This document shows, piece after piece, positions 551 to 63,009 of a stretch of 64,000 nucleotides of DNA. The notes beneath the pieces were generated by a model that made no database searches, had not been told where the DNA came from, and saw only the letters and a program-made list of their open reading frames with translations. The DNA lies in the NCBI GenBank assembly GCA_965645245.1, contig OZ287082.1:310001-374000 (forward strand), given 5' to 3'. The position numbers and the translations under genes were made by a program. Every line of letters begins with the position of its first letter. Position 1 is the first letter of the stretch. The stretch comes from Massalongia carnosa. Its lineage: Eukaryota.

Positions 551-2800
551 TCACTCTAGCCACGCGTTCGCCGCCGATAGAATATCCCGCAACGTCCCGT
601 TATCATTATCCTCATCTCTCATAGCCCGAAAATCAAAACCACGACGACGACAATGACGATCGCGATTCAGAAACATCGCCCGCTCGAAATCGATCAGCAT
701 GAGGCGATCCAGTTCGCGGTTCCAGAGGACGTTGGGCGGGCGCAGGTCTGCTTGATTGATTCCTGCGAGTGTCACTTCGGCGACGGTGCGGCGGAGTTCT
801 GCTTGGAAGGATGGTCTTGTTTTGACCTTCTCGTAAGATTCGGCCACGTCTCCTCCCCAGGACATGAGGAGCATGTGCACGATTCGAACCTCGACGTCGA
901 GATGGTAGGGTTTGGCGAGGTCAATGTTGCCAAGATAGACGGGAACGGCCGCGCCTTGAAGATGTTCCAGATGGCGGTACACTCGCCCTTCATGTCGCAA
1001 GTTGGATACGAATGCGCGGATGGTGCCTTTGGCCACGAAGACATAGCCGTGCGAGGTCAATCGGATTCGGAACAATGCCCCTCGAGCACCTCGTTGGCCT
1101 AAGGGTTCGCAGTTCCGGTCAAGGGTACGGTCCAGCTGCCTGTTAACCAACGCCGTGAACTCTGGCAGGCTGATGGCGTGGCGATCGCTCTTTCTCCGAT
1201 GCTTGGACACGTTTGGACAGCGCTCGTCCAGCGTGGATTTCTGCCGGATCCCGAGCAAGCACTTCTGACTGCAGTACCGTTGTCTTTGGTGCTTGCCTTT
1301 ATCCTGATCCTTGCACAGAGACTGTCGCTCTTCCTCATTGGATCTATTTGACAGCTGCCGCACTTGTCCGTTTTTTGGATTCTTCATGGAGGACTCTGTC
1401 TCGGATAAATCCGACGATGATTCTTCAGGAGCAGGATCGATCTTAGGGGGCTCGCAGCGCTTCCTTCCTCGCAGCCGAAGCTTGATCGGAGTTCGATCGG
1501 AATTCTTCGAAATCTTGAGTCCACCGTTGGCCTTGAAGAGCGAACTAGGCGTTTCGACACGTTCTCGATCTTCGTCCGATTGACTCGAAAATCCGGCATT
1601 CTTTTCCCATCTTTCCAGCTCATCCATCATTTTGTTCCGCCAACCCTGGTTCCTCTCGGTGAACTGCTCCGACTGAAACGCCATGAGACACAGGCCAAGC
1701 ACCTGAGCAACAGCAGTGCGTTGCCAGTCGTAGCCATTCCTGTCCACGTCCTCGTTCGGGATGGCCAAGTGATAATACACCGTGGCTGGGTTTTTGGCTC
1801 GCACCCAGAGGAAGACGAGTGCAACTCCTGTCGTGATGTAACTATACTCCAACCCGTTCTCGATCATATCCGAGTAAGCCTGCGTGACCGCGCATCCTAT
1901 GCGCCAGTCCGCTTTATGATCTTTCTGTTCCTGCTCCGTCGCAAATATGGACACGTTGATGACATCGTTAGCTACGTTCATGGGCCGCAGACGTGTTTGC
2001 AGGTCTTGCACTGAAAGTTTGTGAGCCGCTTTGTATTCGGCCACCAACAGCAGTTTGTGACTTCCGGCCGTCTTGTAGATGCAATATTGATCCGGTCGAC
2101 CGCGTTTTCGCGCTTCTGAAGGATGATGCGTGTCAGCGTTGCCCTGAATTCTCGGATTCCGCAGGTCTTCCATCATATCATGCTTCAGCGCCTCTTCTCC
2201 TTGGTCATTGAGGGCATTCGCATGGTTATCAAATCCTAACCCATCGAGTTCTGTCATCTTGCTCAGTTGCTCCATAATCTTTGCCGTGGGCCCCTCCACT
2301 GCGAGTCGCTCGTAGGATGCGAGATCTGATTCGCTGGCATATTTGCGCTCACAGAGGTCGTCGCCAAGCTCTTGCAAATGCTGCACCGTGGCAAATAGCC
2401 GGAGATGAGGCGTGCAGTCCGAGTGAAAGCGTTTTCGCGCATCGATCAATAACGATGCTTGGGCTCCGTCGAAGCCCTCCCAAGGCCGGAGTTTGCTGGG
2501 ACATACCTTGCCGGTCACGCTGGTAAGTGCGCCCGTCGTGGTTATACTCTTGTTTACTTGAATGGAAAGTCGCTTCGAGATGTGCACGTGGCAGGCTTCC
2601 AGGTACTCTTCGAACGTTGTTGCCCGTAAGCGCTGCTCGGCTTCTTCCCTGCGCTGCTCGGCTTCTTTCCTGAGCTGCTCGGCTTCTTCCCTTCGCTGAT
2701 CGGCTTCTTCCCTTCGCTGATCGGCTTCTTCCCTGCGTCGCTCCAGCTCCCTCAAGCGTTCCTCGAGACGCTGAAAATCGGATTCTCTTCGTGCCGCCAT
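551..2800 (-). CDS. Spok-like (spore-killer family) protein, copy 1: coiled-coil, PD-(D/E)XK nuclease, Cys cluster, kinase-like domain; 749 aa, intronless
   Basis: N-terminal RREEA(D/E)Q heptads; RPDQY...AEYK (D237, E255, K257); YCSQKC-x13-CPNVSKH (C510, C514, C528); G-rich loop LGQRGARG, FVAKG, QADLRPPN (D685), IDFE (D704). Domain order matches Podospora SPOK proteins as I recall them. Confidence 0.85.
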   Translation of the reverse strand: MAARRESDFQRLEERLRELERRREEADQRREEADQRREEAEQLRKEAEQRREEAEQRLRATTFEEYLEACHVHISKRLSIQVNKSITTTGALTSVTGKVCPSKLRPWEGFDGAQASLLIDARKRFHSDCTPHLRLFATVQHLQELGDDLCERKYASESDLASYERLAVEGPTAKIMEQLSKMTELDGLGFDNHANALNDQGEEALKHDMMEDLRNPRIQGNADTHHPSEARKRGRPDQYCIYKTAGSHKLLLVAEYKAAHKLSVQDLQTRLRPMNVANDVINVSIFATEQEQKDHKADWRIGCAVTQAYSDMIENGLEYSYITTGVALVFLWVRAKNPATVYYHLAIPNEDVDRNGYDWQRTAVAQVLGLCLMAFQSEQFTERNQGWRNKMMDELERWEKNAGFSSQSDEDRERVETPSSLFKANGGLKISKNSDRTPIKLRLRGRKRCEPPKIDPAPEESSSDLSETESSMKNPKNGQVRQLSNRSNEEERQSLCKDQDKGKHQRQRYCSQKCLLGIRQKSTLDERCPNVSKHRRKSDRHAISLPEFTALVNRQLDRTLDRNCEPLGQRGARGALFRIRLTSHGYVFVAKGTIRAFVSNLRHEGRVYRHLEHLQGAAVPVYLGNIDLAKPYHLDVEVRIVHMLLMSWGGDVAESYEKVKTRPSFQAELRRTVAEVTLAGINQADLRPPNVLWNRELDRLMLIDFERAMFLNRDRHCRRRGFDFRAMRDEDNDNGTLRDILSAANAWLE
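2631..2735 (-). repeat. 5 x 21-bp tandem repeat encoding coiled-coil heptads
   Basis: Units cgctg(c/a)tcggcttcttccct(g/t) at 2631, 2652, 2673, 2694, 2715; copy 2 has only 2 units. Confidence 0.95.
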
Positions 2801-26888: not shown

Positions 26889-27098
26889 TTCATATAAGAT
26901 TTATAATGATCGAATCTGTTACATGAAGATTATCGAGTTAAGTAATCGAGTTCATACTCAATTTTTTGATAAAAGAAAATAGTTTGACATGAATAAATTA
27001 CTTTGTCAATTCGTTCGTTATCATGAGTTTAATTGAAAAATATGTAAAGTTTTTTCAATTTTTTCGACTTCATTTCAAATGAAGTGATATTAAATATT

Positions 27099-27670
27099 TG
27101 TGAAGAAGCGAGATAGTGAATGAATAGATTTATACCATTGCACCACCTGTTCTCCAGACCAAAAGGTACAATACTTAGTCCGCAGACTAAGCTCTATCTA
27201 CTATAACTGGGACTCCTGCTATGTTCGCTGTAGGTCCTGCCGTCCGCACCACGCATAGTCGAACCGTTACACTACCGCCTATCTAGCTGCGGCTAGCCCC
27301 TAGCCGCATCCAGTTATAGTTAGCCCCGAAGAATAGGCTCTTCTTAGCGAACGGCCCTCGCCAATCCGACTTAGAGAGTTTTTATCCAACGCTTTCCCAT
27401 TTCTTCCAAGCTTCAGTCCGTCGAAGCAAGGCAAAAAAGCGAGGAACTCAGGTCAGGAATCGAACTCACGACTAGTACACCGATTGATGACTAAGTATTC
27501 TGTGACGAAGCGAGATAGTGAATAGATTTCTACTATTGCGCCACCTGTCCTCCAGACCAAAAGGTATAATACTTAGTCCGCAGACTAAGCTCTATTCTAC
27601 TGTAACTGGGACTCCGGTTATATTCGCTATAGGTCCTGCCATCCGCACCACGCATGGTCGAACCGTTACA
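27099..27670 (-). mobile_element. TRIM (two ~170-bp LTRs around a 229-bp non-coding core)
   Basis: LTRs 27099-27271 and 27501-27670; TSD ATATT; minus-strand PPT AGATAGGCGGTAG before TGTAACGG. Confidence 0.9.
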
Positions 27671-27941
27671 ATATTAACGTGTTTAATTCTTGAATGTAAA
27701 ACAAAAGTGTTGATTAATATCATAATATTTTAATTATTATTCTTTAATATTATAACTTCTTATTTTTTTTTAAATATGTTTATCATCATCATCATCATAA
27801 TCTATTTGCATTAAATCGAGTTAAATTATCAATAAACGTATTTATATGATTTTTTTATCAGTCAAAATAAATATCATATATTTTGTTTTCGTAAATAAGA
27901 TTACAGCAATTTGTTATTTCATAAAATATAATTTTACATTA

Positions 27942-28303: not shown

Positions 28304-28443
28304 CTAACGTTATATTTTATTGCTTCGTTGTTTAACTTAAAATCATATTCGATAATAAATTTGCGATCTTTTCTGTCTTCAATTCAGTCAGAATCGAAAT
28401 AAGTCTATAAAAATATATCTCTTTTATCAAATATGATTTCTCT

Positions 28444-28617
28444 TGTAACGGTTAGACCATATGTAATGCGGACGGCAGGACCTACAGCAAACTTGGCAGG
28501 AGTCCTAGTTATAGTAGAATGGAGCTTGGTCTGCGGACTAGTTAAGTATTGTACCTTTTAGTCAGGACGACAGGTTGCGCAATGGTAGAAATCTATTCAC
28601 TATCTCGTTTCGTTATA
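28444..28617 (+). mobile_element. Solo LTR of the 170-bp TRIM family
   Basis: Reverse complement of 27501-27670, diverged. Confidence 0.85.
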
Positions 28618-28837
28618 TCATGTCGGACTAACGGCAGAGATTATGTAACAAGCGAGAAAAGCTTATACAAAATTCTCTTCTTGTAAATTTAGGCTTAGAG
28701 GATTCATCATAAATCCATCAATAAATCAATCATCGATTTCACTATCAAGAGATATTCTTCTGACGTAAATATAAATTCATCATAGAGCTCATTGTTATCA
28801 TAAATTCAGCTCAACATATCTCTATCTTTAATAATAT

Positions 28838-30560: not shown

Positions 30561-33500
30561 ATAGGTGTTCATTGTGCTGGTAGGAATTGGATATTCAACA
30601 CCCCCCCTCAAGTCCTACCAGTACTTGATTCCATCGTAGATTCGACCGTAATTGAACTTCTTAACCTCTCATGTCTGTTTGTCCATATTGAGCTGTCTGA
30701 TAAAGGAGAAGAACTTGACGTGCGTAAGGGGTTTTATCAGTCCATCTGCAAACATGTCTTCGGTCGGAACATATGTGAGGTCGATTCTTCCTTCTAGCAC
30801 CTCGTTTCGTATGAAGTGGTGCTGAATGTCGATATGCTTGGTCCTGGAGTGTAATGCGGGATTATTGGCCAGTGCTATGGCGCTTTGGTTGTCGCCTTTC
30901 AATGCAATTGTGCCTTCTCCTATTAACAAGTTTATTGTCGGGGATCCGTCATCAGAAGTCATCAATCCGAGTTCAGTCATCAGTAAACGTAGCCATGTAG
31001 CCTCCTTTGCTGCTAAGGTGAGTGCCATATACTCTGCTTCGGTTGATGGCAATGCGACGGTCGTTTGTCTTTTGGAACACCAGCTTATTGGTCCATTATT
31101 CAGCATGAACACATAACCCGAGGTATATTTTCGCTGCTCTTTGTCTCCGGCCCAGTCAGAGTCAGAATATCCTTGTATAAATAAATCTCCCCCACCGAAG
31201 GTGATGCCTCTATTCTTGGTACCGCTAAGGTATCTGAGAATGTGTTTGGCCGCTTCCATATGTGTTTTGCCTGGATTCTTTGCATGGCGACTGACTACGG
31301 ACGTTGCGAAAGCTATGTCTGGCCTGGTTTCTATCATTGCGAACATGATGGATCCAACCATGGTTTGATATTGCTTTATGTCCTTGTCGGAGGCCTGAGA
31401 TTCATTGATGAGAGACAGCCTTCTCGCATGGGAGTGTTTGTTGTCTTTGCGGTTTGCATATGAAATTTTTCCAATACCTTCTCGATATAGGCTGGTTGAG
31501 ATAGCTTTATGGTTTTGTTGACTCGATCTCGTTCGACTTTGAGGCCTAAATAGTAGCTGATTGGTCCCATGTCTACCATCTTGAAAGCTAGCTTGAGCTG
31601 TTTCTTGACTTCGGTGATCATCGGGGAACCCTTTGGGCCTATGATGTTCAAATCGTCAACGAAAGAGGTAACAATGGGTCCTTTTATCCCTTGAGGTGTG
31701 ACGAGGATGCTATGATCTGCGTGGAGTTTCTCCAGTCCTAATTTGCTCAATAGAAAAGCTGATAGTCGTTCATACCAGAGACGCGGAGACTGTTTCAAAC
31801 CGTACAGGGCTTTATTCAGCCTGCACACCATGCCAGCTTTGTCATATCCTTTCGGCATGTGGACATAGATGAGTTGATCGATGAGACCGTTCAGAAAAGC
31901 TGTCACTATATCCAGTTGCTCGATGTCCAGATCGTGATGGGCAGCTAACGCGAATAGCAAGCGAAAAGCCATTGGTTTGACCACAGATGCAAAGGTTTGA
32001 TCGAAATCTACTCCGTATTGTTGTAGATATTTTTGACAACCTATCTGGCTTTAAAGCGAACGATCTTTCCATTTACGTCCCGTTTCAGCTTGAATACCCA
32101 TTTGCCACTCAAGACTATATGTCCGGGTTCCATGGACTCGGTGGATAATGTATCCCAGGTGTTGTTCTCCAGCAGACTTTTGATCTCCTCATCCATTGCC
32201 AGACTCCATTCGATTGCGTATTTGGAGTTCATTGCTTGATGATATGTTTGTGGCTCAGTTGTGTCTGACTGAATGAACGCATCGTAGTCGTTCAGGTATG
32301 CTGCTCCCTCTATTTCCAGTTCTTTGGCCAGAAGTATGAGTGGGTCTTCTTCGTCTCTATCTGCCAGTGTGGGGATGTGTTCTGGTTCACTTAATGCCTC
32401 ATTTGACAGGAGACTCAGCACTTGTGCGACATGGGCGTGTTTTCTGGGTCTACCTCGTCCATGTTTGGGGATTTCACTTATCTTGGAATTCAACTCTGGT
32501 TGGTCTTTTGAAGAAGTGGGACTGATTTCGAGTGTGGTATCTTTCTCGTTTTGAATCATTATGGAATCGTACGTGGGTAGATCGGTCCCATCTTTGAATG
32601 TGGCGTCTTCATGAATCCGTAAGTCCTTGACCCTGATGACCTTGTAGTCTTTTTCCATAAAGACGCGATAGATGGTGCTTCCGTCATATCCACATCCTTG
32701 ACCCTGATGACCTTGTAGTCTTTTTCCATAAAGACGCGATAGATGGTGCTTCCGTCATATCCACACAGGATTCCTTTCTGAGCCCTCGGAGAAAATTTAG
32801 CAGCCTTGCTGTTTAATCCTTTTCGCTCTTCTTCGTGAATCAACGCATAGACTGTGGATCCGAGAATTCTCAGGTGATCCAGCTTAGGTGACTTCCTCTT
32901 GAAGATCTTATACGGGGTTTTACCTGCCAAGGCGTTGGTTGGTCTGACGTTCTTGGTGTGAACCATGGCTAGAACTACTTCTGGCCACAAGTAGTCGGGA
33001 ATGTCTCCGGCAATGACACTGCATCTTGTCATGTCCATGATGGTTCTACCCATTCGTTCCGCGACTCCGTTTTCCTCTTGAGAGTATGGAGCAGCTGGTT
33101 CAAACCTTATGCCTTGTTCCATGTACCAAACGTCTGACTTGTGACTGCGAAGCTCCGTACCGAAGTCAGTGCGAAAACTGCTTATGGGTTTAGCCTTTCC
33201 AGATTTGTTTTGGGCCATGCTGTAGTACGTCAACAAGTGATTAAACCATTCACTCTTCTTGTGTCCCGTATAGACATGAGTGTATCTGCTAGCATCACAG
33301 GTGAAGTGAAGAGTAAAGTTCTTCAAGAAGTCCTGCTGGCTTGATTGGTCCCACTAGGTCAGAGTATATCTTTTGAAAAAGCTCTGTGGCCCTCTCTTGC
33401 TGTGTTCGGTTGTATATCTTTTTGGCATTTCCCATTTTGCATGCATGGCAAAACCAACCGTGGTTGATATCGTCATCGTACGTTATGTCTAGCGTTTTCA

Positions 33501-35492
33501 AATATTTTTGACACGTCGGAATGTTGAGATGACCAAGTCTTGCATGCCATGTAGTGAGTTTTGATTTGACAGATATTTGACAGATAGTGACGTCCAGTCC
33601 TTGATAGGTGTCCTCGTCCACTTTGCTCAAATGCATCCTCATATCTGGGGTGTCAATGGTCTGTAGCATGAAGTTGATGTCAACTGTCGGTACGTGCCCT
33701 ATGACTTTTGCAGTGGATCCCATGAACAGTCTCCAGTTTGAATTGTCATGGAAGATATCGTGTTGATTCAGCATTCCCAAACTCACAAGGTTCACCGGAC
33801 ATTGAGGAATGTAGAGAACATTGTTAAGAATCAGTATCGACGAGGGTAAGCCGTTCTCCAAGATCAATGTCTTATGAATGGTTCCTCTTCCTGGCGACGT
33901 TCCTGTGGACGTTGACCCTTCTAGATCAGTGGAGTAGCTCGTATAGTCAGTGAACGAGTATCTGGGGTTGCATACGTGCATATCTGCAGCGATGTCCAAT
34001 AACCACGAGTTCTTGTTCAGATTCGTCATGGTCATGACTTTTTGCACTCTTGTGGCCATGACCTGTGTGAGTCAACTACTCACCGTTGGAATGTTGGGTG
34101 ATGTATGAGGTAAGTCCGCCTTCGTTTCTGACGAGGCAGTCTTTTGTTTCTTTGCTCTTCCGGATTCGAGCGAACTTCTATGTCTTTTTAGCTGTGGAAA
34201 CTTCTGCCAACAGTTATCTGGCCAATGACGAGTGTTCTTTCTCTCGACACATTCAGAGAAGGTGCAGGTCCCAAATGGGGCTCGACCTCTCGAGTCAGGT
34301 GTGCTGATATGAAGTGCCTTGGTGTTTTTCATGTTAACAGAATAAGCAACAATGATCTTCATTGCTTCCGACAGGTTTGTGGTTTCGTGTGTCCAATCTC
34401 GTCGTAGTTGGGCTATCAATGGGGAATAGACGTCTGTGGTGTTACCCAGCATCATTCCCTGAAGCATGAACTCCACGGTATGCACATCCACTTTGGCCTT
34501 GTCGTCCAGCATTCCTTTAATTTTGTTTAAAGCGCTCTCGTACTCTACACACTATAGGCTGGTGGTCTCGAAGTCAGTCATCTTCATAGAACTAACCTTC
34601 AGAATGATGTCGCTGATGCTCATTGGTGCTATATCTTGGAATCTATCCTTCAGGATTTTCCACATTTCTGCCGCATTCTTGTTGTCGATGAGGCTGTAAT
34701 GGCACTCCGCAACTAATCCGTGAATAATTCCTATAGCCTTGGTCATCTCGGCCTTCTGTCTATTCTTCTCGTCACGCAGCTCTTTTACCAAGATGCTGAC
34801 AGAAAGACCTTTGGCGTCGAAGCCTGCTTGTATTAAACCTTCCCTGATGGTTTCAGCGGTGATTTCTGATTGATTCTCTATAATGGCTCCTTCGCAGTTA
34901 TTCTTGAGCAGAATGCCCTTCTTATAGCTTGCCCATGCCGAATATCTTTCGACCTTCTCCAAAAGATGTGACGTATCTATGATAGACATAATGGGAGAGA
35001 GAATGGGGAGCAATTGACAAGGCGAGAAACTTGTATAAGTAGTGACTGAAAGAATATGGATCTGTGACCTTTCTTATAGACAAGGAAAAGATTGTCCCTC
35101 CTTAGCCAATGTCCACTCTGATGTCTCAACAGAGAAACCTGTTTGCTTAACATGCTTGTTTGCCATGATGAGAATTTCAACTTAGGCTTTTTCAAGGGTC
35201 CAATTGACCAAACGGAAATTGAGCGCAGGGTTCATCCAATTTGATTTAACCGGCCATGGGCCGATTAATCAATAAGAGGCAACTGCCGCACAATCTCACC
35301 TAGTGCCTTAATGAGGCATAATTGCCAAAAAGAAAGGTCTTTGTGCCTTCGATCAATGAGTTTACTAAGCTCTTTGATATCCGTGGGATTTTGTATTTTT
35401 GCGTGTCCAGAATTCAATCGCGGTTGAAACTGACGCTTTGATGATATTTTTACCAATGGGGCGCTCAGGCCCGGCAATATACTTTTTTCCCA

Positions 35493-36689: not shown

Positions 36690-36860
36690 TGTAACGGTTC
36701 GACCAAGCGTGGTGCGGACGGCAGGACCTACAGCGAACATAGCAGGAGTCCCAGTTATAGTAGAATAAAGCTTTGTCTGCGGACTAAGTATTGTGCCTTT
36801 TGGTCGGGAAGGACAGGTGGCGCAATGGTAGAAATCTATTTACTATCTCGCTTCGTCACA
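36690..36860 (+). mobile_element. Solo LTR of the 170-bp TRIM family
   Basis: TGTAACGG...GTCACA; TSD TATGC. Confidence 0.93.
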
Positions 36861-37207
36861 TATGCGGGCAAGTTTATAGGATTATATAATACATGGAAAA
36901 CCTTTTGAGGAAGAAAAACCAAGTAATCCGATACTTCTACGAATACTCTCCGAGTCACCTTCGAGAGATCTTCCTAAAGTACATTTGACCGATGACAAGT
37001 TAAAGAAAAAAATCGACTTATTTAATCGCTAATTGTTTATAATATAAATGCTGTGCTGACAGTGAGAACTGGGTTAGTAAGCCGGTCTTCATCAACTAAG
37101 CGGTAACTAATTTCATCGCTCTGGATAAGTCAGTAATGAGTCGATAATTATTTGTTCCTATAGAGCGTATAATCAAATATCTGTTACTTTTTAGTTTGCA
37201 AAACATG

Positions 37208-40200
37208 TGTTAGTAGCACTAGTAGATAGAACGGGCTGTGGGCACGACTAGAGGTTATTAAGGCCTTCGTCACTGTTAGGCACGGGACGCCTAGCCAGCC
37301 ACGTGACCCCGAAAAGGGGCACACGCCTATATAGCCCACGCTCGCTACTAGCTAATAGAACAACTTTACCATCCAACTCAAGCACTGACGTAGTCATACG
37401 TCTGGTGCCACGAGTTGGGGTAAACCCACACTGATCAGTTTAGTTATTCAGATCAGAATACCCCAATCATTAAAACCTGAAAACCTCGCTATCGCTGACG
37501 ATGGCAGGTTCTCCGAGCGTTGCTCCGAGCGCCGAAAACGCGATCGAGTCAACCGAGTCAACAAATCCCTTTCCCAACGGCATCGATCCGGAGACGGCCG
37601 ATGCTGAGACAATCAAGAAATATGTTAAATATCACTTCCAAAGATATGCAGACAATAACTACGAGGACTAATATCTATGGAATATCGTCCAGGGAAACTT
37701 CGAGCACTTCAAAGAGGAGCATTTCAACAAATTCGATCGAGACACCTGGGAACTCGTAAAGGCCTACTGCTATCAACACGGCATTTGGATCGATCACAAC
37801 TACGGGCCCGGCAGGACTCGCGCATCCTTCATGAGAAAGGCTATCAACACGGAATGGGAACTGGACTGGACTCTCGAACAAATTAAATGGGTTCAAGGAC
37901 GATATAAACATCTATCCGAGAAAAACCCTCGACCGAAAGCGAGAACTCATGAGCATCATCGAGTCAGATAACCTAAATCTCATCGCTGCAAACTCGCGAG
38001 GTCTATCTGCGGATCCGAGAACACAATCGTACCAGGATACCAGACTCCAGACCCCATTGCATCAGTCTGCATCACCAAATCCGTACATACCTCAGGCACC
38101 CCTCGCGTCGCAGTCCCCACAATTTACTCAGCAGATCTCGCAACAACTACCTCCGAGTCAATCATCGCATCAAACGCCTCATCATCAATTTCAGGAGAAC
38201 TCGACCAATCAATACGCCAAGGAATTGACTCTGCTAGAGAAAATCTACAAGGATAACGACAAGTTTAGTGGCACGGGCGACAACTTCGGTTTCAAACTCA
38301 CCATATTCCTCGACAAATGCAGGCGAGTCGGACTACCTCATATCGCGTTCATTCATGGAGCCTCGATTATGCTTTCTGGTCAGGCATTGACTCATTACTA
38401 TGCAAATCGAGGTTCCGCCGCGTCGTTTGATGATTTCTGTCAAAACATGAGGACATTCTTTGAAGGGCCCGAGTGGGAACGCTACAATCTGGCAAAGTGG
38501 CAAACCATCTCCCTGAACGATGTTATCTCAGCCAACCCCTCGCTGTCGACAACCGAGTGTCTCAGAAAGCTATGTACCGAGCTGTACACGATACAACGAG
38601 GCATCAACACGGCATATCACGGGTCAATTCATCTGCGAGAAAACATCATTCGGGCCTGTAGGGGTCACCCAGCACTCGCGGCCGGTTTAACAAATCCACC
38701 ACAGGACACACCAGGATTGGTCAATAACCTCTATGCCTCAATCGTCAATTATGAAGCGGTGCATAAGTCCGCGCAGGGGAGCTATCTAGGCGAGAATGAG
38801 GACGATGAGGAGTCTTTCTTCACCGATCGGCAGTATCGCCGAGGCGGTTTCAACCCTCGCTCTCGCGGCGGACAACGTTTCAACCGATCAAGTTATTCAT
38901 CTCGAAACCAGTCTCGAAACCCGTCTCGTGGCCCATTGCGTCAAAAACGCTGCTTCGTATGCGATGAAGACGGATGCTGGTCAACGAACCACTCATCGAA
39001 AGAACAGGAGGACTCCAAGAAGCGCTGGGGAGATAGGCATCCCAAGTACAAAAATCGCTCAGGCTATGAACGCAATCTTCGTCAATACATCGCTAATTAT
39101 GAGGGCGATAATGAAGATGAAGACGAAATAGCTCACTTTTTTGGAGACCTGTCCATCGAGGCAAAAGACCCTTCTCTTGATGCAGAGGTCGCTACCGAGA
39201 TGTTTCATACCTCGATTGGCACCCTTCATGCAGTTGAGTCTATTAATGCGATCAACATGCTGACCAATAAGGCCTTCGAACATCGCATAACTTGGTCAGA
39301 CAATACCATCGCCCCCGTCTCAGTGCCCTACAGTTTTATCACGTCAACCGACACTCGCTACGACGAGTCCGAGTTTAAAGGGCTACTGATCGATTCCGGT
39401 GCTGCAACTCGGTCAACCGGTGGCATTGGGCAGCTAAAGGCCTTGCAGAAGATCATCTCGATAAAACTCGACGAGACAACGGCTGGGTCAGCAAATTTCG
39501 TCTTTGGCATCGGTAGTACGTCTTCAATCGGCACGGTCAACCTGAATACCCCCATAGGAAGAATCGTCTTTCATATCGTACGAGTCAATACGCCGTTTCT
39601 CCTCTGCCTCGCCGACATGGACAAGCTAGGTGCCTTCTTCAATAACCTAACCAATCAAGTTGTTCAGGCCCAACATACTCATCCTGTGATTCGCCGGTAT
39701 GGTCATGCGTTTCTTTTATGGTGCACATCCGCATATGCCCTCGCGATTGAATCATTCTCGGAAAATCCATGCTTCTTAACTACCACCGAGCTCCGCCGAC
39801 TACATCGTCGCTTCGGGCACCCATCAGTCTCGCGCCTACATCGGATTCTCGAGCGATCAGGTCATGATGTCGACCTTCGAGCCCTAGAATACCTCGTTAA
39901 ATATTGCCACCATTGTCAGAAGCACGGAAAGTCGCCAGGCAGGTTCGGTTTTACCATAAAAGATGACGTCGAGTTTAATTACCACATTGTCGTCGATATT
40001 CTTTACATAGAAGGCAAGGCGGTGCTGCAGTTAGTCGACGAGGCAACTCGATTTCAAGCAGGACGGTGGCTGAAGGACATTTCGGCCAGACATGTATGGG
40101 ATCAGCTACGGGCATGTTGGATCGATACCTATCTCGGCCCCCCCGACCTCATCTCGGCCGATGCAGGCAAACAGTTCATGGCCAGGGAATTCCGACAATA

Positions 40201-43083
40201 TGCTGCAAACATGGGAATCATTGTCAAAAACGTCCCCGTCGAAGCGCATCACTCCATCGGTCTAGTTGAACACTATCATGGACCACTTCGTCGAGCATAT
40301 AGCATCATAACTGCCGAAATTCCCGGAATCGAGCCCGAGTTGGCCCTACAAATGGAATTCAAGGCACTCAACGACTCGGTAGGACCGAATGGTCTAGTTC
40401 CGACGTTGCTTGTGTTCGGTGCCTACCCGAGAATGACTGAAATGGATGCTCCCTCGCCTACAATCACCCAACGCACGATAGCCATGAGAAAGGCTATGGA
40501 GGAGGTACGCAAGCTGCATGCATCTCGTCAGGTTAATGATGCATTGAACACTCGAAACGGCCCGTCCACCACCTTGATTCACGACTTGCCCATCAATTCG
40601 CCGGTGCTAGTATTCCGAGAAGGCAATGCAGGTCGATCAGGGACGTGGAAGGGACCATACAAACTTCTCAGCCTACAAGGCGAGTCGGCTATCATCGAGC
40701 TGTCGAGCGGACCCACCAAATTCCGTTCCACCTCGTTGAAACCGTACTACGACCTTGCTGCTGATGGCATGAAGGATACAAATAAAGATGAAAAAGATGA
40801 CGAAAGCGCAGGAGACGCCGACGTTGGTGCAGGACGTATAGATGATGGTACAGGAGATGCCTCATCTATTAACCCTCGCACCTCGGGACATGTTCCCTCG
40901 ATCGATGCAAGAGACACCCCTCCTACGAATCCCCTCGTCTCGGGAATCATTGCCCCGACTGCCTCACCTTCATCAGCACCATCAGCACCAGTCAAACGTG
41001 GCCGTGGAAGACCCAGAAAACATCCCGAACATGTCAATTTCACTACGCCTTCCAACATCTGCTTCGTCATCGATACTCCTGAAGATAATGATGACGACAT
41101 CTCGAAATTACCCCAATTCACCTCATCGAGGCAAAAGGAAGTCGCCGGACTTCTAGAAAAAGGTGTATTCAAACTCGTAAAGTCTGAAGACGTTCCAGAT
41201 GACGCACGCGTTTTCAACTCGAGGTTTGTTGACGAAATAAAGAATCCTGGCACCGATAAGGCTTTCGAGAAATCACGTCTGGTCGTACAGGCCTACAATG
41301 ACCTCAATAAAGACCTCGTTCTGACACAGTCACCGACAATTCAACGAGTCAGTCAACGTCTTATCATCTGCCTCACAGCAACATTTCAAAACGAGTCAAC
41401 AAAGCTATACCTTCGCGACGTCACTCAGGCATACGTTCAATCAAATTCCGAGTTGAATCGTGACTTTTACATCCGCCCGCCTCATGAACTCACCGCGATG
41501 ATGGGAGCTCCATCCAACTGCATCCTGAAAGTCATAAAACCTCTCTATGGCGTCCCGGAAGCAGGCAATCATTGGTTCGCCACGTATCATGCCCATCATA
41601 CTAGAAAACTCGGCATGACCGAGTCAACCTACGATCCATGCCAACTCTACAAATCCGAGCCTTTTGGCATCGTTGGCCTACAAACTGACGACACCCTTAT
41701 GCTAGCAAGTGACACCTTTTCGGCCGAAGAAGAAGATGCTATCAAGAAGGCTAAGATCATGACTAAAGAGCGCACTCATCTCATCCTCGAAACCCCAATC
41801 AAGTTCAATGGCACCATGATCCGACTCGCCCCGAGCAGAGACATCATGTTGAGCCAGGAAACTCGTGTTGGAGGCATCTCGCTGGTTAAGAATCATGACG
41901 CCTCGACAACTAGCTCGCGAGGCATCGTTCGAGAAAAGTTGTCTTCGAGAGAGCAATATGTGGCCCAACGAGCTAGAGGTGCATACACAGCCTCCATCTG
42001 TCAGCACGAGGCCTCTTTCGATCTATCTTATGCCGCTCAGTCAACAAAGTTCTCCTCAGATGATATCAATGCCCTAAACAAGCGACTTAAGTGGCAAATA
42101 GACAATCAATCCCGAGGGCTGAAATACGTCAAACTCGATCGAAACAGCCTTCAGTTGGTCGTTTTCACCGATTCATCCTTTGCCAACAACCGAGACCTCT
42201 CATCACAAATCGGTTATGTCATATGCCTTGCTGACTCGACTGACAAAGCCAACGTCATTCATTGGTCATCAATTAAGTTTAAAAGGGTGACGCGGAGTGT
42301 CTTGGCCGCCGAGCTATATGGCATGGCACTTGGGTTCGATATCGGGGCCGTCATAAAGGCAACCCTTAGCAAACTTCTCGGAACCGACATTCCACTGATT
42401 CTCTGCACGGATTCAAAATCGCTATATGACTGCTTAGTAAAACTCGGGACGACTCAAGAGAAACGCTTAATGATTGATGTCATGAGTCTCCGTCAGTCAT
42501 ACGAGAGACGTGAGGTGACCGAGGTGAAATGGATTCATGGCCACAATAACCCCGCCGACTCCATGACCAAGACAAAGGCATCCTCGGCCCTCAAAACGGT
42601 GATTGATACTAATCGCATCAACCTAGATACGACCGAGTGGGTAGAACGAGCATCAGGCTGTAGGGCGGCGATAAAATGGCAGGGTGATGATGTTCAATGA
42701 ACCTGAGGCCGCGCTATGTCAGTTGCGAGTTGGGTTGAGTGAGACGCTATATGAGGCCTCACACAGGCAAGCAAAGCCGGGCGTAGGGGGACAGCAGGCA
42801 TAGATGCAACCCGGCATCGAGGCATAGAGGGGGTTTATTTCATTTTTCTAAGTGGTTCCAGTTTAGTAGCACTAGTAGATAGAACGGGCTGTGGGCACGA
42901 CTAGAGGTTATTAAGGCCTTCGTCACTGTTAGGCACGGGACGCCTAGCCAGCCACGTGACCCCAAAAAGGGGCACACGCCTATATAGCCCACGCTCGCTA
43001 CTAGCTAATAGAAAAACTTTTCCATCCAACTCAAGCACTGACGTAGTCATACGTCTGGTGCCACGAGTTGGGGTAAACCCACA
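37208..43083 (+). mobile_element. Ty1/copia retrotransposon E (GalEa-like), young
   Basis: 223-bp LTRs 37208-37430 and 42861-43083 with few differences; TSD ACATG; palindrome ACTGATCAGT where a PBS would be. Confidence 0.95.
37949..42700 (+). CDS. copia E gag-pol polyprotein (the likely true start, ATG 37501, is cut off by a stop at 37669 and a frameshift near 37921)
   Basis: [20 protein letters not shown] protease; HRRFGH...CHHC and ADAG integrase; KPLYG/QTDD RT; FTDSS, AAELY, TDSKSL, NPADS RNase H. Confidence 0.92.
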
Positions 43084-46392: not shown

Positions 46393-46512
46393 TGTAACGG
46401 TTCGACCAAGCGTGGTGCGGACGGCAGGACCTATAGCGAACATAGCAGGAGTCCCAGTTATAGATAGTAGAATAGTGCTTGGTCTACGGACTTAGTATTG
46501 TGCCTTTTGGTC
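46393..46512 (+). repeat. Truncated LTR of the 170-bp TRIM family
   Basis: Matches 36690-36805. Confidence 0.85.
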
Positions 46513-51865: not shown

Positions 51866-52040
51866 TACCCACACTCTCTTGTGTGTCATATTATTTCACA
51901 CGGAAGACGAGGAGATAAAAGGCATCAAATCTTATCTTATCATGCTTCAGGCTAGTGTTGTCAAGGTCATCTCAATCGAAACAACTCGAAATACACAAAC
52001 ACATATTCATTGCACTACATGACATTTCCTCGTAGCGGTC

Positions 52041-55000
52041 ATGGCGGCACGAAGAGAATCCGATTTTCAGCGTCTTGAGGAACGCTTGAGGGAGCTGGAG
52101 CGACGCAGGGAAGAAGCCGAGCAGCGCAGGGAAGAAGCCGAGCAGCGCTTACGGGCAACAACGTTCGACGAGTACCTGGAAGCCTGCCACGTGCACATTT
52201 CGAAACGACTTTCCATTCAAGTAAATAAGAGTATAACCACGACGGGCGCACTTACCAGCGTGACCGGCAAGGTATGTCCCAGCAAACTCCGGCCTTGGGA
52301 GGGCTTCAACGGAGCCCAAGCATCGTTGTTGATCGATGCGCGAAAACGCTTTCACTCGGACTGCACGCCTCATCTCCGGCGATTTGCCACGGTGCAGCAT
52401 TTGCAAGAGCTTGGCGCCGACCTCTGTGACCGCAAATATGCCAGCGAATCAGATCTCGCATCCTACGAGCGACTCGCAGTGGAGGGGCCCACGGCAAAGA
52501 TTATAGAGCAACTGAGCAAGATGACAGAACTCGATGGGTTAGGATTTGATAACCATGCGAATGCCCTCAATGACCAAGGAGAAGGGGCGCTGGAGCATGA
52601 TATGATGGAAGACCTGCAGAATCCGAGAATTCAGGGCAACGCTGACACGCGCCATCCTTTAGAAGCGCGAAAACGCGGTCGACCGGATCAATATTGCATC
52701 TACAAGACGGCCGGAAGTCACAAACTGCTGTTGGTGGCCGAATACAAAGCGGCTCACAAACTTTCAGTGCAAGACCTGCAAACACGTCTGCGGCCCATGA
52801 ACTTAGCTAACGATGTCATCAACGTGTCCATATTTGCGACGGAGCAGGAACAGAAAGATCATAATGCGGACTGGCGCATAGGATGCGCGATCACGCAGGC
52901 TTACTCGTATATGATCGAGAACGGGTTGGAGTACAGTTACATCACGACAGGAGTTGCACTCGTCTTCCTCTGGGTGCGAGCCAAAAACCCAGCCACAGTG
53001 TATTATGTTGGAATACTCGCTTAGCCCCATTAGTTCTAGCTCAGCCCTGCAGGCTGCCATGACTGCTATAAGCAGTCACCTCCGTAGTAATTTCAACATT
53101 ATGCCGTCAACTGTTTATTTAACAGGTTATGAGTCCCGGGTTTGTGCTTTGCGCCCCTCCGACGGCATCCTTCATGCATAGACTACGTACTATCATGTCG
53201 TATCAAGAAGATGATGAGGTGAAAGTTCAGACGTGGAAAGCGCGAAAACGAAGTGGAAACGACATCGAAAGGGATGAGAAACGAAGCGGAAACGAAGCGG
53301 AAACGTCATCGAAAGTGGTGTACGTACGAAACGTGCTGAGGAGGACATCTACAACGGGCGGTGCCTCGAAGACTTCACATCTTGCATTACTGGTCAGATC
53401 AGCAAGGGGAGATAAAAGCCCTGCGATCAGGCCACCAACGTCAATGGTCTGCGGGAAAATGTCTAACAGAGACATCGAGAAAAGCCCTGCTCAGGCCATC
53501 AATAAAACACGTCCATAGTACTCTTCCCATCCACCCATACACTCACAAAAGCTACGTCTCGAGAGATGGTTATGGGTTTAATGAGGCTACAAAGCAGGAC
53601 AACAAAAGACATAAGAAAGAACTACGTGCTTAGGGAAAATGGAGTCAGAGGGAGCTAGATTCGTTCCGCAAGGGGAGCGAATCGGACACAGCTGGATGAA
53701 TCACTTCGCAAGGGGAGTGATGAAAGCTGGATAGTTCAATTTTGGAGGCGAAAGGGGAGCCACGCTCGAAGGGGAGTGTTGGAATACTCGCTTAGCCCCA
53801 TTAGTTCTAGCTCAGCCCTGCAGGCTGCCATGACTGCTATAAGCAGTCACCTCCGTAGTAATTTCAACATTATGCCGTCAACTGTTTATTTAACATATTA
53901 TCACTTGGCCATCCCGAACGAGGACGTGGACAGGAATGGCTACGACTGGCAACGCACTGCTGTTGCTCAGGTGCTTGGCCTGTGTCTCATGGCGTTTCAG
54001 TCGGAGCAGTTCACCGAGAGGAACCAGGGATGGCGGAACAAAATGATGGATGAGCTGGAAAGATGGGAAAAGAATGCCGGATTTTCGAGTCAATCGGACG
54101 AAGATCGAGAACGTGTCGAAACGCCTAGTTCGCTCTTCAAGGCCAACGGTGGATTCAAGATTTCGAAGAATTCCGATCGAACTCCGATCAAGCTTCGGCT
54201 GCGAGGAAGGAAGCGCTGCGAGCCCCCTAAGATCGATCCTGCTCCTGAAGAATCATCGTCGGATTTATCCGAGACAGAGTCCTCCATGAAGAATCCAAAA
54301 AACGGACAAGTGCGGCAACTGTCAAATCGATCCAATGAGGAAGAGCGACAGTCTCTGTGCAAGGATCAGGATAAAGGGAAGCACCAAAGACAACGGTACT
54401 GCAGTCAGAAGTGCTTGCTCGGGATCCGGCAGAAATCCACGCTAGACGAGCGCTGTCCAAACGTGTCCAAGCATCGGAGAATGAGCGATCGCCACGCCAT
54501 CAGCCTGCCAGAGTTCACGGCGTTGGTTAACAGGCAGCTGGACCGTACCCTTGACCGGAACTGCGAACCCCTAGGCCAACGAGGTGCTCGAGGGGCATTG
54601 TTCCGAATCCGATTGACCTCGCACGGCTATGTCTTCGTGGCCAAAGGCACCATTCGCGCATTCGTATCCAACTTGCGACATGAAGGGCGAGTGTACCGCC
54701 ATCTGGAACATCTTCAAGGCACGGCCGTTCCCGTCTATCTTGGCAACATTGACCTCGCCAAACCCTACCATCTCGACGTCGAGGTCCGAATCGTGCACAT
54801 GCTCCTCATGTCCTGGGGAGGAGACGTGGCCGAATCATACGAGACGGTCAAAACAAGACCATCCTTCCAAGCAGAACTCCGCCGCACTGTCGCCGAAGTG
54901 ACACTCGCAGGAATCAATCAAGCAGACCTGCGCCCGCCCAACGTCATCTGGAACCGCGAACTGGATCGCCTCATGCTGATCGATTTCGAGCGGGCGATGT

Positions 55001-55122
55001 TTCTGAATCGCGATCGTCGTTGTCCTCGTCGTGGTTTTGATTTTCGGGCTATGATAGATGAGGATAATGATAACGGGACGTTGCGGGATATTCTATCACC
55101 GGCGAACGCGCGGCTAGAGTGA
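52041..55122 (+). pseudogene. Spok-like copy 2, interrupted by a TRIM at 53006-53895
   Basis: Near-identical to copy 1; deleting the insertion plus one TATTA restores ...TVYYHLAIP... with no other stop. Confidence 0.9.
53006..53895 (+). mobile_element. 890-bp non-autonomous copia-type LTR element (TRIM)
   Basis: Identical 119-bp LTRs 53006-53124 and 53777-53895; TSD TATTA; PBS GGTTATGAG(T)CCC; PPT GAAGGGGAG. Confidence 0.95.
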
Positions 55123-55538
55123 AATGGTAGTTGAAGAATATGATGGGTTGGGGATGGGAATTAAAATAGGTTTGCGGAAACGTGAGCTGCGGAATTGACT
55201 TTAATTCTCTTTCAATAACAGTATGATATTATCTTTATGCAAAATTAAACATCGTGTTCTATATCACGAAATATTATCTCATGCATAACATTATTCAAGA
55301 CTTCTCATATCGATAATCATGAGAGATAGTTTTATAGATTCGGATTTATTATATTGGTTTATAAAGTATAACATAAATTAAATCAAAAAAGCACTTGATA
55401 TCTCATTAACACTATTTCTACTTCTCATTTCATTTAAATATTAAATAATTCATTTACACGTAAATTACGAAAACTAAGGAAGAATTATATCGCGATAAAA
55501 GTTTACGTCGCGCAACGGGTCTGGTTGGGTTAGGTTTT

Positions 55539-62560: not shown

Positions 62561-63009
62561 TGCTGAAATAGGTATATGACTATGGCTATATAGCTATATA
62601 ATAATAAAGGTATATATGACCGTGATGTTAAGGATGTGACGAAGCGAGATAGTGAATAGATTTCTACCATTGCGCCACCTGTCCTCCCGACCAAAAGGCA
62701 CAATACTTATTCCGCAGACCAAGCTCTATTCTACTCTAACTAGGACTCCTGCTATGTTCGCTGTAGGTCCTGCCGTCCGCACCACGATTGGTCGAACCGT
62801 TACAAAGGATAAAGAGTTGCTAGACAGCAATCTTTTCCTATTACTGGTCACACCCTTCTAAGCGAGGTGATCTTATCTTATATTGGGACTAAGCCTAATG
62901 CGGCATCTACGGTTTCCGTAGATAATCTGTCTATCTAAGGCAGTCGTAGGTGCTATATTTATTGTACTGATAGGTGTTCATTATGCTAGTAGGAATTGAA
63001 TAATCAACA
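62561..63009 (-). mobile_element. Solo LTR of the copia C family containing a 170-bp TRIM-family LTR (62635-62804)
   Basis: Matches 35888-36157; TSD ATTAA; inner TSD AAGGA. Confidence 0.92.

Follow-up and report, generated by a model that had tools for sequence, protein, structure and literature searches.

In the window analysed (64,000 nucleotides of contig OZ287082.1 of the lichen-forming fungus Massalongia carnosa, assembly GCA_965645245.1, positions 310,001 to 374,000), a Spok-like gene, here called copy B, is split by a TRIM, a non-coding LTR element. The element is complete and has exact borders, its break point lies inside the coding sequence, and intact paralogs of the gene are present. 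Copy B is probably a recently arisen loss-of-function allele, a young pseudogene within a multi-copy family that is decaying, and we infer that its function has been lost.

Copy B and its two open reading frames

The coordinates of the gene, the element, and their parts are collected in Table 1. The insertion leaves two open reading frames (ORFs), one on either side of the element, and there is no further frameshift or stop in copy B beyond the insertion. The N-terminal ORF ends at 53024, as the preliminary description had it, and its last 5 residues and its stop codon are foreign, being coded by the 5' LTR. On the other side, the description's reading of the 3' LTR as open in frame with the remainder of the gene also holds: the frame is open from 53659, and it contains four in-frame ATGs, two in the LTR (53830 and 53872) and two in the native sequence (53989 and 54043), with possible C-terminal products of 430, 416, and 377 aa. 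The Cys cluster and the kinase are retained in these products, again as described, with every motif residue intact.

The donation of in-frame ATGs by the LTR, to which importance had been attached, is real as an observation but nothing special. It is expected in 2 of the 6 orientation and phase configurations of the TRIM and is therefore not beyond chance; moreover, native ATGs follow.

The homology between copies A and B includes short blocks on both sides of the coding region, and the upstream block stops at 51911, adjoining the end of a Ty3/gypsy element. The native start codon of copy B is still present behind this shared sequence.

Some features of copy B count against a pseudogene. Both ORFs are clean, with the catalytic motif residues all kept in the two halves; the native start and 130 bp upstream of it are preserved; the predicted fold of the 327-aa product is confident (pLDDT 89.3); and an ORF of 430, 416, or 377 aa with the Cys cluster and kinase is on hand.

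Table 1. Positions of the genes, the element, and their parts within the window
Feature	Position	Strand	Remarks
Paralog A (copy A), intact	551..2800	-	749 aa; insertion site empty
Upstream block common to copies A and B	51911..52040	+	130 bp, 93.8% identity
Copy B, Spok-like gene split by TRIM	52041-55122	+
N-terminal coding part, copy B	52041..53005	+	321 codons plus 2 bases; coiled coil, domain 1, PD-(D/E)XK motifs
N-terminal ORF	52041..53024	+	327 aa; TAG stop 53022-53024
Target-site duplication TATTA	53001-53005 and 53896-53900		5 bp; flanks TRIM
TRIM, non-coding LTR element in copy B	53006-53895	+	890 bp
5' LTR of TRIM	53006-53124	+	119 bp, TG...CA
TRIM internal region	53125..53776	+	652 bp, no recognisable coding capacity
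Primer-binding-site-like word	53125-53139	+	directly behind 5' LTR; copia/Ty5-type
Polypurine tract	53768-53776	+	abuts 3' LTR
3' LTR of TRIM	53777-53895	+	holds ATG 53830, TATA-like motif 53838-53842, ATG 53872
C-terminal ORF	53830..55122	+	430 aa; 22 LTR-coded residues, then native C-terminal 408 residues
C-terminal coding part, copy B	53896..55122	+	remainder of strand 316-325, helices to 392, linker, Cys/His cluster, kinase
Downstream block common to copies A and B	55123..55352	+	230 bp, 92.9% identity

The inserted element

TRIMs are LTR elements of under 1 kb with short LTRs, a primer-binding site (PBS), a polypurine tract, and no coding capacity, which occur in multiple copies. The element in copy B shares with known TRIMs its size, the short LTRs, the PBS-like word, the polypurine tract, the absence of coding capacity, and its multi-copy occurrence. 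That such an element interrupts a putative toxin-antidote gene, as first proposed, is borne out by its two LTRs, which are identical at 119/119 positions (direct-repeat comparison), by the target-site duplication, the polypurine tract, and the PBS-like word, and by the empty site in paralog A. The internal region gave no Pfam match at E ≤ 1, and its sole ORF of at least 50 aa is one of 129 aa (53129-53518).

The PBS-like word contains the complement of a CAU anticodon loop, and it matches its counterpart adjoining the 5' LTR of a Ty1/copia element of the window (30672-35073, minus strand; 82% over 34 nt, E 0.017). The internal part of initiator tRNA-Met is reported to prime copia (as a 'half-tRNA') and Ty5 (through the anticodon stem-loop) (PMC5371799), and the word in the TRIM resembles this type of priming, a likeness that is read from the word itself rather than from pairing with a tRNA; no tRNA genes were found in the window. 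The TRIM shows no similarity to the two copia elements of the window beyond the LTR end and the PBS, and neither a second copy of it nor an autonomous partner with the same LTR was found within the window. The TRIM was probably mobilised by an element of the Ty1/copia type.

Paralogs and the empty site

Paralog A reads straight through the insertion site (...TVYYHLAIP...) without the element, which indicates a true insertion rather than a repeat arising by chance. An uninterrupted form, running from 53000 directly to 53896 without the 895 bases between, is also present in contigs of all four public runs, its source being the locus of copy B or a paralogous one.

Paralog A differs from copy B in its coiled coil, which has three extra 7-residue repeats (63 bp), and it carries a Y-to-D change in its QxxxY motif. 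In a third intact copy, P0001 (728 aa), 9 of 729 aligned residues are different from those of copy B. By exact-sequence look-up, P0001 apparently shares one contig of 2,023,447 bp with copy A, with the two ORFs of copy B, and with a fragment of 211 aa (P0244). P0001 was considered as the uninterrupted allele from another strain, and this was rejected because it is apparently on the same 2.02-Mb contig as the proteins of the window; most likely, it is a third paralog in the same genome.

Relative to the state common to copy A and all four public runs, copy B carries nine private substitutions, of which seven are nonsynonymous and two synonymous. This ratio is the neutral expectation and as such a weak hint of a pseudogene, but it is not significantly different from the 18:17 of the remaining A-B divergence (Fisher p = 0.26). 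Relaxed selection on copy B was therefore dropped as a conclusion, and the lack of a significant difference between the two ratios is a further point against a pseudogene.

Membership in the Spok family

By its architecture and motifs, copy B is a Spok-family gene. In the precomputed annotation, PF27653 (SPOK2_N) is found on P0001 and on nearly all of the 120 homologs listed. Local Pfam searches assigned no family to either half or to the whole protein, because the model set does not contain PF27653.

The architecture comprises, from the N-terminus, a coiled coil (helix 2-37 in the model) with a repeat of variable length between copies A and B, a nuclease domain, a Cys/His cluster, and a kinase. 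The nuclease motif residues present in copy B are D216 (103/106 sequences), E234 (102/106), and K236 (105/106), followed by the QxxxY motif with Q286 (105/106) and Y290 (84/106). The Cys/His cluster is C489-x3-C493-x13-C507-x5-H513-x6-H520, each residue of which occurs in 104-106 of the 106 sequences, and the kinase residues K570, D664, N669, and D683 are all present. The last spacing of the cluster is H-x6-H here versus the H-x7-H published for Spok, and the length of this stretch varies across the alignment.

Structural comparison agrees with these assignments. The AlphaFold2 model of the whole protein has a pLDDT of 82.2 and a pTM of 0.80. In VIA-align, the nuclease matches restriction-endonuclease domains: BpuSI for the whole protein (Z 10.4, rmsd 3.6, 146 aligned) and for the N-terminal half (Z 8.3, rmsd 3.2, 124 aligned), and the HsdR of V. 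vulnificus (Z 6.9), which has the restriction-endonuclease-like fold; with Foldseek, the model of the N-terminal half gave no match at E ≤ 0.001. The kinase matches Cdc7 in a profile comparison with PDB sequences (E 4.3e-08), Rio2 in Foldseek (E 1.5e-06), and kinases up to Z 12.8 in VIA-align.

The coiled coil with a variable repeat, PD-(D/E)XK, QxxxY, Cys/His cluster, and kinase D and N are shared with Podospora Spok1-4 and the homologs of the Pezizomycotina. Also shared with the Spok genes are the multi-copy state, the location among transposons, and duplication in compact units of some 2.6 kb. The family of copy B is about 30% identical to named Sordariomycete homologs, and there are no Podospora proteins among the 120 homologs listed. 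Killing and resistance are putative activities in the members from lichen fungi.

The insertion had been placed at the end of the nuclease core, at TVYY. It is correct that all the nuclease motifs are N-terminal to this point. In the model, however, strand 316-325 includes TVYY (residues 319-322), and the same well-folded unit goes on with helices 327-392 before a disordered linker (398-483) begins, so that the break is within the domain and not at its end. In the model of the truncated 327-aa product, the LTR-coded tail completes the last strand.

Fate of the interrupted copy

Since the insertion is inside the last strand of the nuclease domain, the full-length protein can no longer be produced from copy B. 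With two intact paralogs kept, a fresh pseudogene is the more economical reading. Copy B belongs to a set of three or more near-identical Spok-family genes in the genome, and each of their proteins unites a coiled coil with a restriction-endonuclease-like nuclease, a Cys cluster, and a kinase. It was struck very recently by a multi-copy, non-autonomous TRIM, which cut the last beta-strand of the nuclease domain. Copy B would then decay as other broken Spok copies do, and killing or resistance in this genome, if any, would be carried by the intact paralogs.

There are precedents for such a fate. Spok-like genes are described as 'often present as pseudogenes' and as located near transposons (Grognet 2014, PMC4022471), and pseudogenised Spok copies are reported in many Fusarium genomes (Sandell 2025). 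A close likeness is to SpokPsi1 of Podospora anserina, a Spok copy whose coding region is interrupted by a Tc1/mariner-like DNA transposon (Vogan 2019). In SpokPsi1 the 5' end is missing as well, and stop codons are numerous, whereas copy B has no other lesion and was hit by a TRIM, an element of the LTR type, whose LTRs are identical; therefore, the event in copy B is much younger.

The proposal that the insertion made a resistance-only allele instead of a null fares less well. It supposes that the 3' LTR or a cryptic start gives rise to a 377-430-aa protein with the Cys cluster and kinase, which protects against the intact paralogs without killing, and this is unlikely. The open frame, its in-frame ATGs, and the complete Cys-cluster and kinase residues are consistent with such a product. 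Moreover, resistance without killing is possible by point mutation, a further point against a pseudogene: Spok3 K240A is resistant without killing, and the wild type protects in trans, as reported by Vogan (2019). Spok2 of strain A is another resistance-only allele on record, and antidote-only wtf genes are known in S. pombe, so that the conversion of a killer to an antidote-only allele is possible; the wtf antidotes are reported to arise from an alternative start in the same gene. The resistance-only Spok alleles, however, are full-length with point changes, while the C-terminal ORF of copy B is N-terminally truncated, and a published test of protection by such a kinase-half-only Spok was not found in the literature search. 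Among predicted public proteins, 195 short ones (30-410 aa) match the C-terminal half only, many of which may be cut or broken genes; several begin at a Met equivalent to 53989, and two have ankyrin repeats in the place of the nuclease.

Against a resistance-only allele stands, in the first place, the position of the sole TATA-like motif of the LTR, which lies between the two LTR ATGs, 8 nt after 53830 and 34 nt ahead of 53872. A transcript initiated by this motif would therefore not include the first ATG and would begin either at the second or a little before it, and with any later start the first ATG encountered would be the one at 53936, which is out of frame. The product would be without the coiled coil, which is predicted to dimerise, and, according to the model, half a strand and four helices torn from the nuclease domain would remain attached to it. 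Six in-frame deletion alleles of Spok1 are reported to have lost both killing and resistance (Grognet 2014, PMC4022471), the likeness to copy B being drawn apart from the extents of the deletions, which are in Figure S4 of that paper. The chance frequency of ATG donation likewise lends the proposal nothing, and where two intact copies apparently share the contig, an additional antidote offers no obvious advantage.

The N-terminal ORF invites the opposite reading, in which the native promoter drives a toxic 327-aa fragment that is tolerated through the kinase function of the intact paralogs in trans. The ORF keeps its start codon and the upstream sequence shared with copy A, D216, E234-x-K236, and Q286xxxY290 are present, and the model is confident to its end, with the best fold matches aligned up to residue 327. 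Spok3(1-490) is reported to be toxic and to be neutralised by wild-type Spok3 in trans (Vogan 2019), and the intact 728-aa copy is nearly identical to copy B. However, the fragment is without helices 327-392 of the same folded domain, its transcription would need to stop within the TRIM, and the Spok1 deletion alleles do not kill. In the account of Vogan (2019), Spok3 cut at residue 282 is not toxic, though this cut removes QxxxY, and close Spok paralogs of P. anserina do not cross-protect. A toxic fragment is therefore not to be expected.

The more general proposition, that the TRIM has split a one-protein killer into a nuclease-only ORF under the native promoter and a Cys-cluster/kinase ORF starting in or just after the 3' LTR, with either piece made and active, is regarded as doubtful.

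It is very improbable that copy B still works, either by removal of the element from the RNA or by reassembly of the two fragments. The pTM of the whole-protein model may suggest packed domains, but fragments from a domain cut within a strand seldom fold by themselves. In a simple motif scan, there is one donor-like motif in 52850-53500, downstream of the stop, and 17 acceptor motifs, with no donor/acceptor pair that keeps the frame. Misplacement of the element into the gene during assembly, which the high copy of the LTR in the runs might suggest, is next to inconceivable in view of the exact 5-bp duplication, borders exact against paralog A, and a complete element with its own internal region.

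Significance of the split

It is known already that Spok copies are broken by transposons, and copy B is a well-documented example. The means by which a single Spok protein can kill as well as protect are unsolved, and the decay of killers into suppressors or nulls is a central one in meiotic drive. The clean and very young separation of the nuclease motifs from the Cys cluster and kinase, with intact sister copies present, provides a ready-made natural construct, and both ORFs are directly suited to the published galactose-inducible yeast assay (Urquhart & Gardiner 2022; Sandell et al. 2025). Should either piece be expressed and functional, Spok killing and resistance would for the first time be seen in nature divided between two polypeptides, with copy B acting as an antidote-only suppressor or as a poison fragment on account of which the genome needs its intact paralogs.

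Distribution of the TRIM family

Two exact words of the TRIM (23 and 25 bases) had no matches in JGI metagenome contigs. In all four public runs, the contig depth summed over the TRIM exceeds that over the gene flanks approximately 10- to 40-fold, and the depth of the LTRs is far higher, depth not being equal to copy number. Among the matches listed, many contigs diverge exactly at 53006, 53124/5, 53777, and 53895, the borders of the element and of its LTRs. The TRIM is a multi-copy, dispersed, non-autonomous LTR retrotransposon. The locus also documents, in a lichen-forming fungus, a Spok family of several copies and a TRIM family that is apparently active.

Insertion of a short element in a Spok-like gene

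Copy B, one of two Spok-like genes in the window, is interrupted by a short element with identical terminal repeats (see the table). The paralog, copy A, which has 97-98% identity to both halves of copy B, runs across the insertion point without interruption; the insertion in copy B is real. The element fits a TRIM. Its interior of 652 bp contains a single ORF of 129 aa, for which there is no Pfam match. The identical LTRs point to a very young insertion event.

Coordinates of the features discussed in the text
Feature	Position	Strand	Remarks
Copy B with insert	52041-55122	+	890-bp element at 53006-53895
Terminal repeats of the element	53006-53124 and 53777-53895	+	119/119 positions identical; TG start, CA end
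Target duplication	both sides of the element		TATTA on each
Purine run	53768-53776	+	adjoins the 3' repeat
Stop of the N-terminal ORF	53022-53024		five residues added by the LTR
In-frame ATGs, downstream ORF	53830, 53872, 53989, 54043		430, 416 and 377 aa from the first three
Out-of-frame ATG	53936		
Sole TATA-like LTR motif	starts 53838		34 nt ahead of the second ATG
Copy A	551-2800	-	749 aa, unbroken
Codon 311 of copy A	1868-1870	-	D in place of Y of the QxxxY motif
Duplicated unit	323-2930 and 51911-55352		gene, 130 bp upstream, 230 bp downstream, nothing more
Copia element	30672-35073	-	
Ty1/copia element	37210-43083	+	single unbroken 1621-aa frame, 37835-42697; LTRs of 221 bp, 98.6% identical
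Repeat family, ~170-190 bp	27084-27271, 27501-27671, 28443-28619, 36690-36861, 46393-46512, 62634-62805	both	83-95% identity

The word right after the 5' repeat is near-identical to that after the 5' LTR of the minus-strand copia element, and this primer-site-like word includes a stretch complementary to a CAU anticodon loop. Primer sites of this type are described for copia ('half-tRNA') and Ty5 (anticodon stem-loop of initiator tRNA-Met) in the available text of PMC5371799. The window contains no tRNA genes for pairing with the candidate site.

Of ten listed public sequencing runs, none of them recorded as RNA, four were compared with the window. They come from three studies, one on a lichen metagenome and two on coded organisms. 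In all four, a contig joins 53000 to 53896 and skips 895 bases; its source locus could be other than copy B. In runs X1 and X2 the depth of the joining contig equals that of the gene flanks. The nine changes private to copy B are absent from the joining contigs, as are, at two positions examined, those private to P0001, an intact third copy; the joining contigs are therefore other haplotypes. Over the element, contig depth sums to about 10-40 times the value for the gene flanks, and over the LTRs it is far greater, although such depth is not a copy number. Numerous contigs diverge precisely at the four LTR borders; the TRIM fits a dispersed multi-copy family. The TRIM in copy B differs from the majority sequence in the runs at 53254, 53558, 53722 and 53734, and the family is thus polymorphic.

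Copies of the gene

Over 2187 aligned bases, copies A and B are separated by 44 substitutions, of which 25 are nonsynonymous and 19 synonymous (omega 0.39); the coiled-coil repeat accounts for a further difference of 63 bp in length. An exact-sequence look-up returned five proteins of one cluster, each seen on one contig, with a length of 2,023,447 bp in every case: copy A, both ORFs of copy B (327 aa and 430 aa), P0001 (728 aa, intact), and P0244 (211 aa), the last two lying outside the window. The simplest reading is of four loci on a single contig: two intact genes, the copy split by the TRIM, and a fragment. P0001 reads ...TVYYHLAIP... and, aligned with copy B, differs at 4 residues out of 321 and at 5 out of 408. 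P0244 comprises the Cys cluster and the kinase N-lobe, and ends ahead of the catalytic loop. With P0001 and P0244 apparently on the contig of the window, the Spok-like family of this genome seems to comprise members at several stages of decay.

Judged against the state common to copy A and all four runs, copy B has nine private states (52505, 52585, 52660, 52865, 54154, 54318, 54721, 54837, and 54946). Two of these are synonymous and the other seven nonsynonymous; the ratio looks neutral but is not significant (p = 0.26).

Copy A has a substitution of its own in the QxxxY motif. The Y column of the 106-sequence alignment contains Y 84, V 18, S 2, A 1, and D 1, the lone D being copy A; the Tyr is retained in copy B and P0001. 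In the runs compared, the D-coding variant is seen in X4 only, at partial depth (window position 52908). The change might weaken the nuclease and leave copy A a full-length resistance-only allele.

Family assignment and break point

The search with copy A returned 200 proteins; among the 120 matches listed, nearly all are from Pezizomycotina, 700-800 aa long, with PF27653 (SPOK2_N), and the nearest named relatives are in lichen-forming and Eurotiomycete fungi. In the 106-sequence alignment, copy B retains D216, E234-Y-K236, Q286xxxY290, C489, C493, C507, H513, and H520, as well as the kinase residues K570, D664, N669, and D683. These match the motifs given for SPOK3 in the available text of Vogan 2019. 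Against the PDB, the alignment profile matches protein kinases, with a best E of 4.3e-08. The AlphaFold2 model of P0001 (pLDDT 82.2, pTM 0.80) matches Rio2 and other kinases, and its residues 45-358 resemble the nuclease domain of BpuSI, a restriction enzyme (Z 10.4, rmsd 3.6, 146 aligned). When the truncated N-terminal product is modelled by itself, BpuSI again ranks first (Z 8.3), followed by a V. vulnificus HsdR fragment (Z 6.9), and eight of the ten top rows are restriction-endonuclease-like proteins; Foldseek gave no match to this model at E <= 0.001. V. vulnificus HsdR was also the best HHpred hit reported in the consulted part of Vogan et al. (Vogan 2019).

The element, the break, and the two ORFs are as the preliminary description had them. 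Its view that the insertion splits the nuclease from the Cys cluster and kinase holds in so far as all nuclease motifs lie on one side, but the modelled cut passes through a folded domain, not between domains. TVYY (residues 319-322; of the 106 sequences, 87 have Y321 and 92 have Y322), a conserved stretch, lies within a predicted strand, 316-325, followed by helices to 392, a disordered linker (398-483), and then the Cys cluster and kinase. In the model of the 327-aa product (pLDDT 89.3, a confidence that is silent on stability in the cell) the foreign tail completes the strand.

Resistance-only allele or young pseudogene

Because the genome appears to contain two intact copies, the economical reading of copy B is a fresh loss-of-function allele, that is, a young pseudogene. 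Broken Spok copies, one with a transposon inside the coding region, are already documented in the consulted parts of Vogan 2019, Grognet 2014, and Sandell 2025; here the host is a lichen-forming fungus and the agent a TRIM. A motif scan gave no support for removal of the element by splicing.

It had been proposed instead that the ATGs donated by the LTR could make copy B a resistance-only allele, a reading that is less probable than a simple pseudogene of recent origin. Bolder readings of this kind draw on the insertion being the sole lesion of copy B, on every motif being kept across the two ORFs, and on the youth of the event. Moreover, 195 short predicted public proteins, many possibly cut or broken genes, match the C-terminal half alone; some begin at the Met that corresponds to 53989, and in two the nuclease is replaced by ankyrin repeats. 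However, in-frame ATGs arise in two of the six orientation and phase configurations of the element, and their donation is therefore no special feature. From the placement of the TATA-like motif, downstream of the first ATG, an RNA started in the LTR would likely miss that ATG and start at or shortly ahead of the second. The downstream product would also lack the coiled coil, which is predicted to dimerise, and six in-frame deletion alleles of Spok1 gave neither killing nor resistance, as far as the available text of Grognet 2014 describes them. Full-length point mutants can nevertheless confer resistance without killing, according to the portion of Vogan 2019 at hand, and Spok3(1-490) is countered in trans by the wild-type protein. 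In the literature searched, of which parts were available, no published test of a kinase-half-only Spok fragment was found.

Among the public predicted proteins P0126, P0137, and P0181-P0214, some combine a Spok-type kinase with ankyrin repeats. Others form a group of about 200-250 aa that begins just past the Cys cluster and is kinase only. Some are on contigs of 12-22 kb. Both kinds are possibly stand-alone descendants of the Spok kinase.

Setting of the duplicated unit

The window is fungal and transposon-rich, with Pfam-matching ORFs that mark three elements of Ty3/gypsy type and two of Ty1/copia type, along with a LINE-like element and a DDE_1 transposase. Little beyond the gene itself belongs to the duplicated unit. 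Copies A and B are in inverted orientation, with about 50 kb between them in which transposons are the sole recognised content. The plus-strand Ty1/copia element may still be active, and the family of short repeats would be MITE-like or consist of solo LTRs.
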